Shown here: positions 20,135 through 29,233 of the stretch, piece by piece
How positions within the stretch are numbered: position 1 is the stretch's first letter
Layout of the letters: every line of letters begins with the position of its first letter
DNA from: Escherichia coli
GTDB taxonomy: Bacteria > Pseudomonadota > Gammaproteobacteria > Enterobacterales > Enterobacteriaceae
Length of the DNA stretch: 64,000 bases
Strand: one strand, 5' to 3'
Assembly: GCF_046105845.1 (NCBI RefSeq)
Contig: NZ_CP151004.1
Program-made: the position numbers and the translations under genes
The notes under the pieces: model-generated
The model's database searches: none
The model's input: the letters and a program-made list of their open reading frames with translations, nothing else
Told to the model about the DNA's origin: nothing

Positions 20135-20883
20135 TGGCGGAACTCAGCGATCAGGAGATGCTGCGCTACAACCGGCAAATCATTCTGCGCGGTTTTGATT
20201 TTGACGGTCAGGAGGCGCTAAAAGATTCTCGTGTGCTGATCGTCGGCCTCGGTGGACTCGGCTGTGCAGCTTCGCAGTATCTGGCAAGCGCCGGTGTCGG
20301 CAACCTGACGCTGCTCGACTTCGACACGGTTTCGCTCTCGAATCTGCAACGCCAGACGCTGCACAGTGATGCCACGATCGGGCAACCGAAGGTGGAATCC
20401 GCCCGTGACGCCCTGACGCGGATCAACCCACATATCGCGATTACGCCAGTCAATGCACTGCTGGATGACGCAGAACTTGCAGCATTGATTGCTGAACACG
20501 ATCTGGTGCTCGACTGTACGGATAACGTTGCGGTGCGCAATCAACTGAACGCAGGCTGTTTTGCCGCGAAGGTGCCGCTGGTTTCCGGCGCGGCAATTCG
20601 TATGGAAGGTCAAATCACGGTCTTCACTTATCAGGACGGCGAGCCTTGCTATCGCTGCCTTAGCCGTTTGTTTGGCGAGAACGCGTTAACCTGCGTAGAA
20701 GCAGGCGTGATGGCACCGTTGATCGGCGTAATTGGTTCGTTGCAGGCAATGGAAGCGATCAAACTGCTGGCAGGTTATGGCAAACCGGCCAGCGGGAAAA
20801 TCGTCATGTACGATGCGATGACCTGTCAGTTTCGTGAAATGAAACTGATGCGCAATCCGGGGTGTGAGGTGTGCGGGCAGTAA
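20134..20883 (+). CDS. moeB: Molybdopterin-synthase adenylyltransferase MoeB, 249 aa
   Basis: Full ORF; ThiF/MoeB fold (GLGGLGC) and C-terminal CxxC; start overlaps moeA stop. Confidence 0.94.
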   Translation: MAELSDQEMLRYNRQIILRGFDFDGQEALKDSRVLIVGLGGLGCAASQYLASAGVGNLTLLDFDTVSLSNLQRQTLHSDATIGQPKVESARDALTRINPHIAITPVNALLDDAELAALIAEHDLVLDCTDNVAVRNQLNAGCFAAKVPLVSGAAIRMEGQITVFTYQDGEPCYRCLSRLFGENALTCVEAGVMAPLIGVIGSLQAMEAIKLLAGYGKPASGKIVMYDAMTCQFREMKLMRNPGCEVCGQ

Positions 20884-20900
20884 TTGCCACCTCCAGGCCT

Positions 20901-20945
20901 GATAAGACGTGGCAGGCATCGGTGCACTCCGCCACGTCATCAGCA
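20901..20945. repeat. REP-like imperfect palindrome between moeB and fsaA
   Basis: CTGATAAGACGTGGC ... GCCACGTCATCAG inverted repeat with one mismatch, read from sequence. Confidence 0.4.
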
Positions 20946-20970
20946 ATTTATGAGGATGCAGAACGTCCGG

Positions 20971-21633
20971 TTAAATCGACGTTCTGCCAAACGCTCCCTG
21001 CCAGTCCTGCTCAAACTTCGCCACAGCGGCATCAACCGCCGGATAGCTAATCATCTGTTGTGCCACATCCAGTGGCAGAGTAATTGATTCACATCCTGCC
21101 AGTAAGCAGTCCAGCGCCTGACGCGGGGTTTTGAAACTCGCTGCCAGCACTTTCGCCTGCGGCGCATGCATTTTCAATAACTGGTGTAAGTCGGTCACAG
21201 TCTGAATGCCGCTACCGCCCTGAGCATCAATACGATTAACGTAAGGCGCAACATATTCCGCACCTGCCAGCGCCGACAGCAGCCCTTGTGCTGCGCCATA
21301 TACCGCGGTTCCCAGCGTCGGAATCCCTTCCGCTTTTAACATATTAATCGCTGCCAGCCCCTCGGCGGTCACCGGAACTTTCACCACGATATCCGCAATA
21401 ATAGAACGCAATTTACGTGCGTCATTCACCATCCCTTCGGCTGTGGTAGCCATCACCTGGGCAAACAGACGCCCCTGACCGCCCATCGCCTCGTGAAGTT
21501 CCGGAAGTACAACGTCCAGCGGTTTCTTACCCGCTGCGATAATGCTTGGGTTAGTGGTCACACCCGCCAGCGGAAAAATACGTGACAGCGCCTTCACCGC
21601 AACAACGTCTGAAGTATCCAGATACAGTTCCAT
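20971..21633 (-). CDS. fsaA: Fructose-6-phosphate aldolase 1 FsaA, 220 aa
   Basis: ORF 20971..21705; start at MELYLDTSD matching FsaA. Confidence 0.92.
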
Positions 21634-21736
21634 AACCATCCTCAAAATGTACTTTTTGTCTGAATGTAGACTATCACGGGAAAACTCTCTGAACAGTTGA
21701 CGCACATCAATCTAACTTTCATTCGAAAGTATTTTA

Positions 21737-22663
21737 ATGTTTGAACGAAACAGAGAGGCAACTATGATTTTCAATATTCAGCGCTACTCGACCCATGATG
21801 GCCCCGGTATCCGCACGGTCGTATTTCTTAAAGGCTGTTCGCTGGGCTGCCGCTGGTGTCAGAACCCGGAAAGCCGCGCCCGCACGCAGGATCTGCTGTA
21901 TGACGCACGTCTGTGTCTGGAAGGCTGCGAGCTGTGCGCTAAGGCCGCGCCGGAAGTGATTGAGCGCGCGCTGAATGGCTTGCTTATTCATCGGGAAAAG
22001 TTAACCCCGGAGCATCTGACAGCGTTAACCGACTGCTGCCCGACACAGGCGTTAACCGTATGTGGTGAAGTGAAAAGCGTTGAGGAGATAATGAAGACCG
22101 TTCTGCGCGATAAACCGTTTTACGATCGCAGCGGCGGCGGCTTAACGCTTTCTGGCGGTGAACCCTTTATGCAGCCGGAAATGGCGATGGCGCTACTGCA
22201 AGCCAGCCACGAGGCAGGCATTCATACTGCGGTAGAAACCTGTCTGCATGTGCCGTGGAAATATATCGCCCCTTCTCTGCCCTATATCGATCTGTTTCTT
22301 GCCGATTTAAAACACGTTGCCGACGCACCGTTTAAACAGTGGACCGACGGTAATGCCGCCAGGGTGCTGGATAACCTGAAAAAACTCGCCGCAGCGGGCA
22401 AAAAAATCATTATCCGCGTGCCGCTGATTCAGGGCTTTAATGCCGACGAAACCTCTGTAAAAGCCATTACCGATTTTGCCGCCGACGAGCTGCACGTTGG
22501 CGAAATTCATTTCCTGCCCTACCACACGCTGGGCATCAACAAATATCACTTACTTAATCTGCCCTATGACGCCCCGGAAAAACCGCTTGATGCGCCAGAA
22601 CTGCTCGACTTTGCCCAGCAGTATGCCTGCCAGAAAGGGTTAACCGCGACCTTACGAGGATAA
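21737..22663 (+). CDS. ybiY: Glycyl-radical enzyme activating protein YbiY (radical SAM), about 299-308 aa
   Basis: ORF with CxxxCxxC cluster (CSLGCRWC) and extra Cys-rich insert; alternative start at 21764 (MIFNIQRY) possible. Confidence 0.88.
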
Positions 22664-22668
22664 CAACC

Positions 22669-25101
22669 ATGACCACACTGAAACTGGATACGCTCAGCGA
22701 CCGCATTAAAGCGCACAAAAATGCGCTGGTGCATATTGTGAAACCGCCGGTCTGTACCGAGCGCGCGCAGCACTATACTGAGATGTATCAACAACATCTC
22801 GATAAGCCGATCCCGGTACGTCGCGCGCTGGCGCTGGCGCATCACCTGGCGAATCGCACCATCTGGATCAAGCACGATGAGTTGATCATTGGCAACCAGG
22901 CAAGCGAAGTTCGCGCCGCGCCGATCTTCCCGGAATATACCGTCTCCTGGATCGAAAAAGAGATTGATGATCTGGCGGATCGTCCGGGTGCTGGTTTTGC
23001 GGTGAGCGAAGAGAACAAACGTGTTCTGCATGAAGTGTGCCCTTGGTGGCGCGGTCAGACGGTACAGGATCGCTGCTACGGCATGTTTACCGATGAGCAA
23101 AAAGGTCTGCTGGCGACCGGAATCATTAAAGCGGAAGGCAATATGACCTCCGGCGATGCGCACCTGGCGGTGAATTTCCCGCTACTGCTGGAAAAAGGTC
23201 TTGATGGTCTGCGCGAGAAAGTAGCGGAACGTCGCTCGCGCATCAACCTGACGGTGCTGGAAGATTTGCACGGCGAGCAGTTCCTGAAAGCGATTGATAT
23301 CGTGCTGGTGGCAGTCAGTGAACACATTGAACGTTTCGCTGCCCTGGCGCGTGAAATGGCAGCCACTGAAACCCGCGAAAGCCGTCGCGATGAACTGCTG
23401 GCGATAGCAGAAAACTGCGATCTTATCGCCCACCAGCCGCCGCAGACTTTCTGGCAGGCGCTGCAACTGTGTTACTTCATCCAGTTGATTTTGCAGATCG
23501 AATCTAACGGTCACTCGGTATCGTTTGGTCGTATGGACCAGTATCTCTACCCGTACTATCGCCGCGACGTTGAACTGAACCAGACACTGGATCGCGAACA
23601 TGCCATCGAGATGCTGCATAGCTGCTGGTTGAAACTGCTGGAAGTGAACAAAATCCGCTCCGGCTCGCACTCGAAAGCCTCTGCGGGAAGTCCGCTGTAT
23701 CAGAACGTCACCATTGGCGGACAAAATCTGGTTGATGGTCAACCAATGGACGCGGTGAATCCACTCTCTTACGCGATCCTCGAATCCTGCGGTCGCCTGC
23801 GTTCCACTCAGCCTAACCTCAGCGTGCGTTACCATGCAGGAATGAGCAACGATTTCCTCGACGCCTGCGTACAGGTGATCCGTTGCGGCTTCGGGATGCC
23901 GGCGTTCAACAACGACGAAATCGTGATCCCGGAATTTATTAAACTCGGTATTGAACCGCAGGACGCTTACGACTATGCAGCGATTGGTTGTATCGAAACC
24001 GCCGTCGGTGGCAAATGGGGCTATCGCTGTACCGGCATGAGCTTTATCAACTTCGCCCGTGTGATGCTGGCGGCGCTGGAAGGCGGTCGTGATGCCACCA
24101 GCGGCAAAGTGTTCCTGCCACAAGAAAAAGCGTTGTCGGCAGGTAACTTCAACAACTTCGATGAAGTGATGGACGCGTGGGATACGCAAATCCGTTACTA
24201 CACGCGTAAATCAATCGAAATCGAATATGTCGTTGACACCATGCTGGAAGAGAACGTGCACGATATTCTCTGCTCGGCGCTGGTGGATGACTGTATTGAG
24301 CGAGCGAAAAGCATCAAGCAAGGCGGCGCGAAATATGACTGGGTTTCTGGCCTGCAGGTTGGCATTGCCAACCTCGGCAACAGCCTGGCGGCAGTGAAGA
24401 AACTGGTATTTGAACAGGGCGCGATTGGTCAGCAACAACTGGCTGCCGCACTGGCGGATGACTTCGATGGCCTGACTCATGAGCAACTGCGTCAGCGGCT
24501 GATTAACGGTGCGCCGAAGTACGGCAACGACGATGATACCGTCGATACGCTGCTGGCTCGCGCTTATCAGACCTATATCGACGAACTGAAACAGTACCAT
24601 AACCCACGCTACGGTCGTGGTCCGGTTGGCGGCAACTATTACGCGGGTACGTCGTCTATCTCCGCTAACGTACCGTTTGGCGCGCAGACTATGGCAACAC
24701 CGGACGGGCGCAAAGCCCACACCCCGCTGGCAGAAGGCGCAAGCCCGGCTTCCGGTACTGATCATCTTGGCCCTACTGCGGTCATTGGCTCAGTGGGTAA
24801 ACTGCCTACGGCCGCGATTCTCGGCGGCGTGCTGCTCAACCAGAAACTGAATCCAGCAACGCTGGAGAACGAATCTGACAAGCAGAAACTGATGATCCTG
24901 CTACGCACCTTCTTTGAAGTGCATAAAGGCTGGCATATTCAGTACAACATCGTTTCCCGCGAAACGCTGCTGGAAGCGAAAAAACATCCGGATCAGTACC
25001 GCGATCTGGTAGTGCGTGTCGCGGGTTATTCCGCCTTCTTCACTGCGCTCTCTCCAGACGCACAGGACGATATCATCGCCCGTACTGAACATATGCTGTA
25101 A
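22669..25101 (+). CDS. ybiW: Pyruvate formate-lyase-like glycyl radical enzyme YbiW, 810 aa
   Basis: Full ORF; C-terminal glycyl radical motif (RVAGYSA); directly downstream of the activase ybiY. Confidence 0.92.
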
Positions 25102-25246
25102 CTCTTCCGCCCGGCGGCCACCGTCGCCGGGCCAAATCATTCACATCATCAATTTCAGCCTCGCTTTCATTCGAAATATAATTTGTGCTCTGCGTCACAT
25201 TGTTATTACACTGTTACGGTTTCATTTTCGAGCCAGGAGCACACCT

Positions 25247-26062
25247 ATGAGCGTAAAAGTTATCGTCACAGACATGGACGGTACTTTTCTTAACGACGCC
25301 AAAACGTACAACCAACCACGTTTTATGGCGCAATATCAGGAACTGAAAAAGCGCGGCATTAAGTTCGTTGTCGCCAGCGGTAATCAGTATTACCAGCTTA
25401 TTTCGTTCTTTCCTGAGCTAAAGGATGAGATCTCTTTTGTCGCGGAAAACGGCGCACTGGTTTACGAACATGGCAAGCAACTGTTCCACGGCGAACTGAC
25501 CCGACATGAATCGCGGATTGTGATTGGCGAGTTGCTAAAAGATAAGCAACTCAATTTTGTCGCCTGCGGTCTGCAAAGTGCATATGTCAGCGAAAACGCC
25601 CCCGAAGCATTCGTCGCACTGATGGCAAAACACTACCATCGCCTGAAACCTGTAAAAGATTATCAGGAGATTGACGACGTACTGTTCAAGTTTTCGCTCA
25701 ACCTGCCGGATGAACAAATCCCGTTAGTGATCGACAAACTGCACGTAGCGCTCGACGGCATTATGAAACCCGTCACCAGTGGTTTTGGCTTTATCGACCT
25801 GATTATTCCTGGCCTGCATAAAGCGAATGGTATTTCGCGGTTACTGAAACGCTGGGATCTGTCACCGCAAAATGTGGTAGCGATTGGCGACAGCGGTAAC
25901 GATGCGGAGATGCTGAAAATGGCGCGTTATTCCTTTGCGATGGGCAATGCTGCGGAAAACATTAAACAAATCGCCCGTTACGCTACCGATGATAATAATC
26001 ATGAAGGCGCGCTGAACGTGATTCAGGCGGTGCTGGATAATATCGCTCCTTTCAATAGTTGA
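25247..26062 (+). CDS. ybiV: HAD-family sugar phosphatase YbiV (Cof-like), 271 aa
   Basis: ORF 25016..26062; start at [13 protein letters not shown] (HAD motif I DxDGT). Confidence 0.9.
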
Positions 26063-26082
26063 TCTTCCCCCTGGCCGAAGTG

Positions 26083-26116
26083 ACCACTTCGGCCTCTCTC
26101 CTTTTTGCTCGCTTTG
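26083..26116 (+). terminator. Rho-independent terminator downstream of ybiV
   Basis: GGCCGAAGTG/CACTTCGGCC stem followed by a T-rich tract, 20 bp after the ybiV stop. Confidence 0.6.
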
Positions 26117-26213
26117 TGCACTGACTCAAGATTTTTATCTTGCGTTAACTTATTTTTAACTTAATGTATCAATCGTAATCATTTTACTTTCGAATGAAAG
26201 AAGCGAGGTTGAT

Positions 26214-27473
26214 ATGACTTTTTCCTGTGAGACGCTGCCCACAGATGCGAAAGCGGCTATCCGAGAGATGAAAGCTGCGCTGCGGGAACAGCTCGGTGAT
26301 GTGCAACAGGTTTTCGATACACTCTCTGCAAAAATCGAAACGCGTGTTGCTGAAATCGATGCCCTAAAAGCGCAAGGGCTGCCGGTTTGGCCGGAAGTTT
26401 CTTATAGTGATATTGCCGCAGGTACAGTAAGCGATGCCACTCGCAATGAAATTAAACGTCGCGGCTGTGCAGTCATAAAAGGCCATTTCCCTCGCGAGCT
26501 GGCGATGGCGTGGGATCGTGCCATGCTCGATTATCTTGATATCAATCATTTTGATGATGTTTATAAAGGCCCTGGCGACAGTTTTTTCGGCTCGCTGGAG
26601 GCTTCTCGTCCCGAAATCTATCCCATTTACTGGTCGCAAGCACAGATGCAGGCGCGGCAGAGCGAAAACATGGCTGCTGTGCAATCTTTTCTAAACCGAC
26701 TGTGGACGTCTGAAAGCAACGGCAAACAGTGGTTTAATCCTGATATCAGTGTGATTTATCCAGACAGGATCCGCCGCCGCCCTCCAGGTACTACATCTAA
26801 AGGCCTGGGCGCGCATACCGATTCTGGTGCGCTGGAACGGTGGTTATTACCCGCTTATCAGCGCGTTTTTGCCAATGTGTTTAATGGTAATTTCGATGAT
26901 TACGATCCCTGGGATGCTGCACACCGGACCGATGTCGAAGAGTACACGGTAGATAACACTACAAAATGTTCGGTGTTCCGCACGTTTCAAGGCTGGACGG
27001 CGCTCTCTGATATGTTATCGGGTCAGGGATTGTTACATGTGGTGCCTATCCCGGAAGCGATGGCGTATGTTTTATTGCGCCCGCTGCTGGATGACGTACC
27101 GGACGATGAACTGTGCGGGGTTGCACCTGGCAAAGTTCTGCCCATTTCAGAGAAATGGCATCCACTACTGCTTAAAGCGCTGACTTCCATTCCCGCGATA
27201 ACAGCAGGGGATTCCGTCTGGTGGCACTGCGATGTGATTCACTCCGTCGCGCCAGTAGACAATCAACAGGGTTGGGGCAACGTGATGTACATCCCTGCTG
27301 CGCCAATGTGCGAGAAAAATCGGGCTTATGCACACAAAGTCAAAATGGCGCTGGAAAAAGGCGCATCACCTGGCGACTTCCCGCGGGAAGATTATGAAGC
27401 AAACTGGGAAGGCCGCTTTAAGCTGGAGGATCTGAACATTCACGGTAAGCGAGCGTTGGGCATGGATGTTTGA
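26214..27473 (+). CDS. ybiU: Uncharacterized protein YbiU (DUF1479 family), 419 aa
   Basis: Full ORF; recognised as YbiU by sequence and position. Confidence 0.85.
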   Translation: MTFSCETLPTDAKAAIREMKAALREQLGDVQQVFDTLSAKIETRVAEIDALKAQGLPVWPEVSYSDIAAGTVSDATRNEIKRRGCAVIKGHFPRELAMAWDRAMLDYLDINHFDDVYKGPGDSFFGSLEASRPEIYPIYWSQAQMQARQSENMAAVQSFLNRLWTSESNGKQWFNPDISVIYPDRIRRRPPGTTSKGLGAHTDSGALERWLLPAYQRVFANVFNGNFDDYDPWDAAHRTDVEEYTVDNTTKCSVFRTFQGWTALSDMLSGQGLLHVVPIPEAMAYVLLRPLLDDVPDDELCGVAPGKVLPISEKWHPLLLKALTSIPAITAGDSVWWHCDVIHSVAPVDNQQGWGNVMYIPAAPMCEKNRAYAHKVKMALEKGASPGDFPREDYEANWEGRFKLEDLNIHGKRALGMDV

Positions 27474-27555
27474 GAGTTAATGGAAGTGAATTGATGTGGG
27501 ATTAAGAAAATCGATTCGACGTTACTCAGATTGCTGACAAGTGCGCTTTCTTAAT

Positions 27556-27580
27556 GCCTGATAAGCGTAGCGCATCAGGC
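27556..27580. repeat. REP (repetitive extragenic palindrome) unit between ybiU and ybiT
   Basis: GCCTGATAAGCGTAGCGCATCAGGC, the canonical E. coli REP palindrome. Confidence 0.7.
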
Positions 27581-27603
27581 TATTTTGCATTTGTCATCAG
27601 CCG

Positions 27604-27632
27604 CCGTCACCCCGACAGTATCGGGGTGACGG
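27604..27632 (-). terminator. Stem-loop directly downstream of the ybiT stop (12-bp perfect stem)
   Basis: CCGTCACCCCGA / TCGGGGTGACGG inverted repeat read from sequence. Confidence 0.55.
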
Positions 27633-27640
27633 ATAATAAC

Positions 27641-29233
27641 TTACTCGATCCCTTTACTACGCAGGTAATCTTCGTAATTACCGCTAAAGTCAATAACGCG
27701 TTCCGGGGTGATTTCCAGAATGCGGGTCGCCAGGGAGCTTACGAACTCACGGTCGTGTGAAACAAAGATCAGCGTGCCCTGATACAGTTCCAGCGCCATG
27801 TTCAGCGACTCAATAGATTCCATATCCAGGTGGTTGGTCGGTTCGTCCATGATCAGAATGTTCGGCTTCTGCATCATTAACTTACCAAACAGCATCCGCC
27901 CTTTCTCCCCACCGGAAAGCACTTTCGCTGGCTTTTTGATGTCGTCCTGGCTGAACAGCAAACGACCGAGAATGCTGCGTACCGCCTGCTCGTCATCGCC
28001 TTCCTGCTTCCACTGGCTCATCCATTCGAACACGGTCAGATCATTTTCAAACTCATATTCGTGGTCCTGAGCATAGTAACCAATGCGCGCGTTTTCAGAC
28101 CATTTTACGGTGCCGCTGTCCGGTTGCAGATCGCCCACCAGCGTTTTCAGCAGCGTTGATTTACCGACGCCGTTGGTACCCAGTACCGCAAGTTTTTCAC
28201 CGACCTCCAGCAGCAGGTTGAGATTTTTAAACAGTGGACCGTTATCAAACCCTTTGGTCAGACCTTCCACTTCCAGCGCGTTACGGAACAGTTTCTTATC
28301 CTGTTCAAAACGGATGAACGGGTTCTGACGGCTGGAGGCTTTCACCTCTTCCAGTTTGATTTTATCAATCTGGCGCGCGCGCGAAGTTGCCTGGCGAGAT
28401 TTCGAGGCGTTGGCGCTAAAGCGGCTAACGAAAGATTGCAGCTCAGCAATCTGCGCTTTCTTCTTGGCGTTATCAGCCAGCAGACGTTCACGCGCCTGGG
28501 TCGCCGCCGTCATGTACTCATCGTAGTTGCCCGGATAAACGCGCAGCTCGCCGTAATCCAGATCCGCCATATGGGTACAAACCATGTTAAGGAAGTGACG
28601 GTCGTGCGAGATGATGATCATGGTGCTGTCACGCTCGTTCAGCACCTGTTCCAGCCAACGAATGGTGTCGATGTCGAGGTTGTTGGTCGGTTCGTCGAGC
28701 AGGAGAATGTCTGGATCAGCAAAAAGCGCCTGTGCCAGCAGCACACGCAGCTTCCAGCCAGGAGCAACTTCACTCATCGGGCCGTAGTGCTGTTCCACTG
28801 GAATTCCCACGCCAAGCAACAATTCACCGGCGCGAGCTTCCGCAGAGTAACCGTCCATTTCGCCGTATTTCACTTCCAGATCGGCCACTTTATAGCCGTC
28901 TTCTTCACTCATTTCCGGCAAAGCATAGATGCGGTCACGCTCCTGCTTCACTTCCCACAACTCTTTATGCCCCATGATCACCGTATCCAGCACAGTGAAC
29001 TCTTCAAAGGCAAACTGATCCTGACGCAGCTTACCAATGCGCTCGTTGGGATCGAGGGAAACGTTACCCAGCGTCGGCTCAAGGTCGCCGCCGAGGATCT
29101 TCATAAAGGTGGATTTACCACTACCGTTCGCGCCAATCAGGCCGTAACGGTTGCCGCCGCCAAATTTGACGGAAATGTTTTCAAACAACGGCTTACTGCC
29201 GAACTGCATGGTGACGTTACTGGAAACTAACAC
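27641..29233 (-). CDS. ybiT: ABC-F family ATPase YbiT (two ABC domains, no permease), 530 aa
   Basis: Full ORF; two Walker A motifs ([18 protein letters not shown]) and ABC signatures. Confidence 0.92.

Follow-up and report, generated by a model that had tools for sequence, protein, structure and literature searches.

In Escherichia coli, two glycyl radical enzymes act on phosphorylated anhydrohexitols: YbiW converts 1,5-anhydroglucitol-6-phosphate (1,5-AG6P) to 1-deoxyfructose-6-phosphate, and PflD makes 1-deoxyfructose-6-phosphate from 1,5-anhydromannitol-6-phosphate (Ma et al., J Am Chem Soc 146:26187, 2024, as summarised in PMC12441222). According to that summary, both pathways start by phosphorylation through the phosphotransferase system (PTS), the YbiW reaction requires the glycyl radical, and the pathway allows anaerobic growth of E. 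coli and many gut bacteria on 1,5-anhydroglucitol (1,5-AG). Crystal structures are available for YbiW (PDB 8ID7 and 8YJN) and for its paralogue PflD (8YJO). Here we analysed a 64,000-nucleotide stretch of E. coli contig NZ_CP151004.1 (assembly GCF_046105845.1), hereafter the window, in which the genes ybiY and ybiW very probably encode the YbiY-YbiW system of the anaerobic 1,5-AG pathway. An earlier interpretation made without database searches (the sequence-only reading) had recognised a ybiY-ybiW glycyl radical enzyme pair and called its substrate poorly defined, a “known unknown”. The pair itself is borne out, with both open reading frames (ORFs) in place and both products scoring above the cut-offs of their families, TIGR02494 and TIGR01774. 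The verdict on the substrate is out of date, since the substrate was published in 2024 (in the part of that work summarised in PMC12441222, and with structures 8ID7 and 8YJN). Thus, the pair is already known, as are its substrate, structures and physiological role.

The window proteins were compared with family models (NCBIfam release 20 with its curated cut-offs, and Pfam domains called on the window ORFs), with the glycerol dehydratase 1R8W, an alignment with which provided active-site equivalences, and with 80 species-level orthologous loci recovered from a genome collection (1.07 Mb in total). In YbiW, a PFL-like domain (PF02901, 697 bits, residues 11-671) is followed by a Gly_radical domain (PF01228, 113 bits, residues 688-792). 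The C-terminal RVAGYSA motif on which the pair had been recognised is present on alignment at residues 783-789, with G786 as the radical glycine, and the Cys loop reads G440-C441-I442-E443 (GCIE), with the catalytic C441 and the general-base E443. YbiW scores 1408.9 bits against TIGR01774, the “formate C-acetyltransferase/glycerol dehydratase family” model of the pyruvate formate-lyase (PFL) 2-3 subfamily, for which the cut-off is 678.2. It reaches neither the PFL equivalogs (TIGR01255, 160.8 bits for a cut-off of 994.2; NF007437, 582 for 1109) nor those of choline trimethylamine-lyase (TIGR04394, 464.6 for 1050), hydroxyproline dehydratase (NF043068, 532.6 for 1100) and sulfopropanediol dehydratase (NF048009, 517.8 for 1000). 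The active-site comparison that the sequence-only reading had proposed was run: YbiW keeps the triad of glycerol dehydratase and lacks the Cys-Cys pair of PFL, and the choline lyase model stays far below cut-off. Because the GCxE loop comes without a Cys-Cys pair and the PFL equivalogs fall far short of their cut-offs, YbiW is classed, from its sequence, as an eliminase-class glycyl radical enzyme and not as a formate-lyase. Residues G786, C441, E443, H165, H282, S283 and Y344 are invariant across the 80 species. The structures 8ID7 and 8YJN (“Probable dehydratase YbiW”) match the window protein at 1855 bits; the crystallised constructs have three further changes near residues 114-117.

YbiY scores 370.7 bits against TIGR02494 (“glycyl-radical enzyme activating protein”, cut-off 174.35). 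The mechanical ORF 21737-22663 encodes 308 residues with the Pfam domains Radical_SAM (S-adenosylmethionine) and Fer4_12, and its upstream in-frame ATG at 21737 falls within a conserved -10-like element, TTTAAT. The RefSeq start of ybiY lies 27 nt downstream of this ATG, at window position 21764, and is preceded by the Shine-Dalgarno sequence GAGAGG (21753-21758). On these three grounds, the start at 21737 was rejected in favour of 21764; of the extent 21737-25101 assigned earlier to the pair, the two ORFs stand and the first 27 nt of ybiY do not. Numbered from the 21764 start, the radical-SAM motif that had been described as CxxxCxxC is C25-x3-C29-x2-C32, all three Cys being invariant among the 80 species. 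The further claim of ferredoxin-like Cys clusters held in part. A Cys-rich insert of about 50 residues relative to PflA is present and contains six Cys (C51, C55, C58, C91, C92 and C100), five of which (all except C91) are invariant in the window and its 80 orthologues. Two CX2CX2CX3C motifs would need eight Cys, and Pfam calls no Fer4 domain in YbiY. The Cys count of the insert suggests one auxiliary cluster, not two complete four-Cys clusters. The ybiW gene follows its activase gene after only 5 nt, as immediately as had been described, and its Shine-Dalgarno sequence, GAGGA, sits within the 3’ end of ybiY.

The opposite strand of both genes, whose coding sequence is highly conserved, also has mechanical ORFs, one of those within ybiW being 23182-24189 (335 aa). 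Over-expression of a 161-bp fragment internal to ybiY, in either orientation, was reported to cause filamentation of E. coli UTI89, which full-length ybiY did not (PMC6206680).

The window proteins are nearly identical to those of K-12, for which reference coordinates and products were taken from RefSeq. YbiW shares 806 of its 810 residues with the K-12 protein (differences E184K, M246I, H474R and D769E) and YbiY 298 of 299 (T111K), every one of these differences lying at a position that varies among the 80 species; FsaA, the product of the neighbouring gene, has three substitutions. The fsaA-ybiY intergenic region is the same at 128 of 130 bases, and the gene order moeB-fsaA-ybiY-ybiW-ybiV-ybiU-ybiT, placed in the window by homology, is common to both. 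The described conservation in E. coli was confirmed with a 5.2-kb query spanning fsaA to ybiV: of 5426 complete E. coli genomes, 5425 have a match, with identities of 90-99% (best 98.3%). Across Enterobacterales, YbiW is 85-99% identical with 489 of 810 positions invariant, YbiY 63-96% and FsaA 67-97%. In all 80 loci, ybiY is upstream of ybiW and adjoins it.

The top E. coli matches listed for the query are all at 98.3%, with four records at 90-95%, and the Escherichia lineage of the window seems to have no close representative in the collection. In one relative, Pseudocitrobacter faecalis (locus L065, 6001-8429), ybiW seems to be broken near its 5’ end, the frame that opens at the expected start giving only 16 aa and the match running from 6117. 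In E. coli strain 1190 (locus L001, 11291-12551), ybiU is annotated as a frameshifted pseudogene. Both disruptions could be real decay or assembly errors.

The individual radical steps of YbiW can be proposed by analogy with glycerol and diol dehydratases. For activation, YbiY would use the [4Fe-4S] cluster of its CX3CX2C motif and S-adenosylmethionine to take a hydrogen from Gly786 of YbiW, where a glycyl radical, stable and sensitive to oxygen, would remain. This radical would move to Cys441 in each turnover, and the resulting thiyl radical would abstract the C2 hydrogen of 1,5-AG6P while Glu443 takes the proton from the C2 hydroxyl. The ketyl radical so formed would expel the ring oxygen from C1 by beta-elimination, the leaving group being an ether oxygen and not water, and return of the hydrogen from Cys441 would give 1-deoxyfructose-6-phosphate. 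Such a C2-centred mechanism would explain why YbiW and PflD, acting on C2 epimers, give the same product. Further down the pathway, the divergently encoded FsaA would split 1-deoxyfructose-6-phosphate into glyceraldehyde-3-phosphate and hydroxyacetone, and GldA, encoded elsewhere, would reduce hydroxyacetone to 1,2-propanediol. Cleavage by FsaA or FsaB followed by reduction to 1,2-propanediol by GldA is reportedly how the pathway proceeds. FsaA accepts hydroxyacetone, in agreement with the step proposed for it.

The gene neighbourhoods of the 80 species support the anhydroglucitol pathway. The fsaA gene is adjacent to ybiY and divergent from it in 62 of 80 loci, while downstream of ybiW ybiV is found in 59 and ybiU in 57; ybiU keeps its linkage to fsaA-ybiYW in loci with a rearranged gene order too (L069 and L078). 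In Rouxiella aceris (L069, 1-13300), a single cluster comprises a GluP-type major facilitator superfamily transporter, a ROK-family sugar kinase, ybiY-ybiW, fsaA, a GldA homologue (49% identical to GldA), ybiU and two DeoR-type genes, one of which is yciT-like (58% identical to K-12 YciT). By their predicted products, these genes would lead from uptake and phosphorylation through ring opening and aldol cleavage to the reduction of hydroxyacetone, and the cluster resembles a complete pathway that does without the PTS.

The region upstream of ybiY was examined by phylogenetic footprinting, in which the window and 73 species loci (74 sequences) were aligned on a palindrome referred to as O1 (Table 1). 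The pattern TTGAY-N4-RTCAA is present in 68 of the 74 sequences, and 67 of these have it at the same distance from the operator. It carries 1.6-2.0 bits in the half-sites, 0.3-0.5 in the four spacer bases and 0.1-0.5 in the flanks. On inspection of its letters, this pattern is that of the FNR consensus. From its centre to the first base of the conserved TTTAAT the distance is 29.5 bp, which corresponds to class II geometry; the site would be at -41.5 if ybiY transcription starts near 21745, as predicted. The only match found in a sigma-70 scan, TTGAAC-16-TATGAT (21741-21768), was rejected, its -10 spanning the ybiY start codon. That the scan missed the conserved TTTAAT is explained by the poor -35 to be expected of a class II FNR promoter.

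Two preprints (2025-2026) describe massively parallel reporter assays (MPRA) of this promoter and call ybiYW functionally and regulatorily unannotated. The first found the ybiY promoter active only anaerobically, with YciT bound near “-5” of the predicted start and an activator, left without a name, “around -20”. The second reported activator-like couplings from -30 to -15 and strong couplings from 0 to +20, and its authors doubted the predicted start site. When the published predicted start is shifted once, to about 21726, all three published footprints fall on conserved motifs, the “0 to +20” footprint corresponding to the second conserved box at 21740-21750. The case for FNR thus consists of the conservation pattern and the reported anaerobic activity. 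In the literature searched, we found neither the FNR-site prediction nor the palindrome-operator prediction, and no mention of ybiY together with FNR, that is, neither support for FNR control nor a prior claim of it.

The block CTAYCACGG..AAAACC (window 21668-21690) is kept only where fsaA is divergent from ybiY and is missing in Klebsiella and Raoultella, in which moeB lies right next to the ybiY promoter. It includes, on the minus strand, a TGnTAnnnT pattern about 30 bp from the FNR-like centre, such that the two divergent promoters might share one FNR site.

The palindrome ACTTTCATTCGAAAGT is almost invariant in the 74 sequences, at about 2 bits per position, and recurs upstream of ybiY, ybiV and ybiU (O1-O3 in Table 1). 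Among the loci having each gene, operator-like 14-mers were found upstream of ybiY in 76 of 80, of ybiV in 51 of 59 and of ybiU in 56 of 57; elsewhere in the 1.07 Mb there are three, plus seven weak matches inside ybiW. A ChIP-exo study showed that the DeoR-type regulator YciT binds between ybiY and fsaA and regulates fsaA, ybiY and ybiV, and DNA-affinity mass spectrometry placed YciT at the ybiY promoter. Orthologues of yciT, 58-64% identical to K-12 YciT, adjoin ybiYW or fsaA in Serratia, Rouxiella, Brenneria and Affinibrenneria. The Serratia cluster also adjoins ORFs that, judged by their first residues only, resemble yciH, pyrF and lapB, the neighbourhood of yciT in E. coli, which suggests an earlier linkage of the regulator gene to the operon that was lost in Escherichia. 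YciT is therefore likely to be the dedicated regulator of the cluster and the palindrome its operator, the motif in the ChIP-exo paper being given only as a figure. Together, these observations lead us to infer that ybiY is transcribed from a class II FNR-dependent promoter and that YciT represses it at a palindromic operator, further copies of which precede ybiV and ybiU; fsaA, ybiYW, ybiV and ybiU would then belong to a single regulon. The recurrence of the palindrome, which is conserved across Enterobacteriaceae, implies that a phosphatase and a DUF1479 protein so far without a function are co-regulated with the anhydroglucitol enzymes.

Extending this, it is possible, though on balance doubtful, that the enzyme pair is only the core of a five-gene regulon for anhydroglucitol metabolism (fsaA, ybiY-ybiW, ybiV and ybiU), in which FNR is the anaerobic activator, YciT a sugar-phosphate-responsive repressor at three operators, and YbiV and YbiU catalyse unrecognised steps on the same metabolite. 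FNR would then be the activator that the two MPRA studies left unnamed, and the inducer of YciT would likely be 1,5-AG6P or 1-deoxyfructose-6-phosphate. 1,5-AG is the source of the toxic 1,5-AG6P in the neutropenia of G6PC3 deficiency and glycogen storage disease type Ib (GSD-Ib). YbiV could be a phosphatase “safety valve” for 1,5-AG6P, like human G6PC3, and YbiU could handle the same metabolite in a way that tolerates oxygen, as would be fitting for the partner of an oxygen-sensitive enzyme. We take YbiU to have a 2-oxoglutarate/Fe(II)-oxygenase-like fold, and conjecture that it might, for example, hydroxylate 1,5-AG6P at C1 to yield glucose-6-phosphate. No function of YbiU was found in the searched literature.

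Other functions of the pair were weighed against this assignment. The RefSeq product names of K-12 present YbiW as a formate-lyase, its orthologue in PDB 6XS4 was deposited as “Formate C-acetyltransferase”, and one study (PMC9055928) counted it among four formate acetyltransferases of E. coli. That YbiW is a third pyruvate (2-ketoacid) formate-lyase, with YbiY as its PFL activase, is nevertheless very unlikely, given that PflB has Cys418-Cys419 (ACCVS) where YbiW has the eliminase signature G440-C441-I-E443, that both PFL equivalogs, TIGR01255 and NF007437, are missed, that PFL is the weakest PDB match of YbiW among full-length glycyl radical enzymes (152 bits), and that another substrate has been demonstrated (Ma et al. 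2024, as far as summarised in PMC12441222). We also judge it improbable that YbiW is a small-molecule dehydratase of the diol or glycerol type, or another sugar-phosphate enzyme, for which 1,5-AG6P is a mere side substrate and the physiological one still unknown. Among solved structures that are not orthologous, its nearest are indeed those of B12-independent glycerol dehydratase (550 bits) and of diol dehydratase (507 bits); it shares the full catalytic set of the former (His, Ser, Tyr, Cys and Glu); and the co-regulated neighbours ybiV and ybiU have no assigned step. Yet the equivalents of D447 and Y640 are G456 and S662, and YbiW has the invariant insert R453-C454-T455 of its own; growth on 1,5-AG is reported (in the summary of PMC12441222); a hexose transporter, a ROK sugar kinase, a fructose-6-phosphate-type aldolase and a GldA homologue fit a hexitol phosphate and not a C3 diol; and the 489 residues invariant in Enterobacterales argue for one tightly constrained substrate. 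Finally, very low expression has been reported in standard media (for FsaA), and the disrupted ybiW of P. faecalis and the frameshifted ybiU of strain 1190 could be taken to indicate that the pair is a decaying or silent remnant in this strain, without current function. This we consider hardly credible, as both ORFs are intact, the promoter elements are the same as in K-12, the locus is kept in all but one of the 5426 genomes, and at three of the four YbiW sites that differ from K-12 the window agrees with the majority, while its residue at the fourth is common among the species (I, in 37 of 80).

The assignment to the 1,5-AG pathway, and the regulation proposed for it, also have points that count against them. 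NCBIfam release 20 is without an equivalog model for YbiW, and the RefSeq label in K-12 remains “putative pyruvate formate lyase”. For the window allele, the function is predicted from identity with the characterised K-12 protein, and the FsaA and GldA steps are proposed, in line with gene context. As for the promoter, the start near 21745 is itself a prediction; a single FNR-like site with one mismatch is not significant by itself, 6 being found in the window for 2.65 expected; and the two MPRA preprints scanned motifs without naming FNR.

Table 1. Features of the ybiY-ybiW locus and its surroundings, in window coordinates except where the locus of a relative is named
Feature	Position	Strand	Description
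ybiY	21764..22663	+	glycyl-radical-enzyme activating radical-SAM protein, 299 aa
ybiW	22669..25101	+	glycyl radical enzyme, 810 aa; probable 1,5-AG6P ring-opening C-O lyase (“dehydratase”)
FNR-type site TTGACgcacATCAA	21697..21710	.	9/10 consensus positions; predicted anaerobic activator site near -41.5 of ybiY promoter
Operator O1, ACTTTC-ATTC-GAAAGT	21715..21730	.	perfect palindrome between FNR-like site and -10; candidate YciT site
-10-like hexamer TTTAAT of ybiY promoter	21733..21738	+	1.65-2.0 bits per position (74 sequences)
Second conserved box TTTGAACGAAA (consensus CTTYATAYGMAA)	21740..21750	+	degenerate operator copy across predicted transcription start
Operator O2 GCTTTCATTCGAAATA	25163..25182	+	palindrome 25163-25178; overlaps consensus TATAAT (25177-25182) upstream of ybiV
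Operator O3 TCTTTCATTCGAAAGT	26186..26201	-	1 mismatch, inverted; ends 13 nt before ybiU start codon
Candidate extended -10 of fsaA, TGATAGTCT	21668..21676	-	TGnTAnnnT pattern; low confidence
fsaA	20971..21633	-	fructose-6-phosphate aldolase 1, 220 aa; Pfam TAL_FSA; NCBIfam NF009296, 451 bits; divergent from ybiY
GC-rich hairpin	25109..25132	+	directly 3’ of ybiW stop; 10-bp stem, 4-nt loop, -22.1 kcal/mol, z = -4.6
ybiV (supH)	25247..26062	+	Cof-type HAD sugar phosphatase, 271 aa; PDB 1RLM, 2HF2; co-regulated neighbour
ybiU	26214..27473	+	DUF1479 / Gig2-like, 419 aa; PDB 2DBI, 2CSG; co-regulated neighbour
yciT orthologues in relatives	L073 8482-9228; L069 10979-11728; L068 3472-4218; L081 8544-9311		

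Among the surroundings, the ybiU allele stands out. In the segment that holds ybiU and its flanks (window 26013-27680), this allele is only about 62-86% identical to that of K-12 in DNA and 84% in protein, while the flanking genes are 97-100% identical. Such low identity between near-identical flanks indicates two deeply divergent ybiU alleles at one E. coli locus. Operator O3 is also kept in the divergent K-12 allele. The terminator scan found no canonical terminator after ybiW, where the GC-rich hairpin is without a U tract; its stem is kept in K-12 and its loop differs. The hairpin may be a weak terminator, an mRNA-stabilising end or an element resembling repetitive extragenic palindromes (REP). 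No RNA family was found at E <= 1 within 20800-27600, nor at gathering score across the whole window.

1,5-AG is a sugar derivative of food and blood, and hence both dietary and host-derived. For the pair itself, the use of these results is a correction, as annotation lags behind biochemistry: the Prokaryotic Genome Annotation Pipeline (PGAP) says “glycyl radical protein”, RefSeq K-12 “putative pyruvate formate lyase”, and papers published between 2020 and 2026 continue to describe YbiW either as unannotated or as a formate acetyltransferase. Joining the separate literatures yields a coherent, testable model of an FNR- and YciT-controlled regulon for a clinically relevant sugar analogue, and an experimental handle on YbiU and DUF1479, whose structures have been solved and which have so far been without a function.

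The closest known system is the YbiW/YbiY pair of E. coli K-12 (b0823/b0824), which cleaves 1,5-AG6P and to which the window genes are orthologous, with equal lengths and gene order; K-12 differs in the neighbouring ybiU allele, which is only 84% identical. The paralogous PflD/PflC system, which acts on 1,5-anhydromannitol-6-phosphate, shares the eliminase class (the PflD loop is GCVE) and an Fsa aldolase as neighbour (fsaB), and its product is the same as that of YbiW (in the summary of PMC12441222). PflD is 39% identical to YbiW and acts on the C2 epimer. From YbiW to PflD, H282 becomes S, Y344 becomes G, R453-C454-T455-G456 becomes G-L-H-D and S662 becomes Y. These residues are candidates for substrate recognition, and the alignment suggests that R453-C454-T455, S662, H282 and Y344 may tell the gluco from the manno epimer. 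The gene contexts differ as well: in K-12, pflD-pflC lies among the frw PTS genes, beside ptsA, fsaB and gldA, with the activase gene downstream, whereas ybiY is upstream of ybiW.

The B12-independent glycerol dehydratase of Clostridium butyricum (1R8W, 1R9D) and the diol dehydratases have the same fold and the same Gly/Cys/Glu triad as YbiW, with equivalents of His164, His281, Ser282 and Tyr339. On alignment, G786 of YbiW corresponds to G763 of glycerol dehydratase, C441 to C433, E443 to E435, H165 to H164, H282/S283 to H281/S282 and Y344 to Y339, all conserved in both. The presumed chemistry, a ketyl radical followed by beta-elimination of an oxygen leaving group, is also shared, but that group would be the ring ether oxygen of a phosphorylated hexitol in YbiW and is the hydroxyl of a C3 diol in glycerol dehydratase. 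Where glycerol dehydratase has D447 and Y640, YbiW has G456 and S662, neither of which varies within the YbiW clade, and YbiW carries 2- and 6-residue insertions near the active-site loops; R453-C454-T455 is an insert specific to YbiW relative to glycerol dehydratase and invariant in the 80 species. D447 and Y640 have a glycerol-binding role in the enzyme of 1R9D. PflB/PflA belongs to the same superfamily and shares with YbiW/YbiY the glycyl radical cofactor and the radical-SAM core of the activase. In contrast to YbiW, PflB has a Cys-Cys pair and no catalytic Glu, PflA is without the Cys-rich insert of about 50 residues seen in YbiY, and the bond broken by PflB is a C-C bond where that broken by YbiW is a C-O bond.

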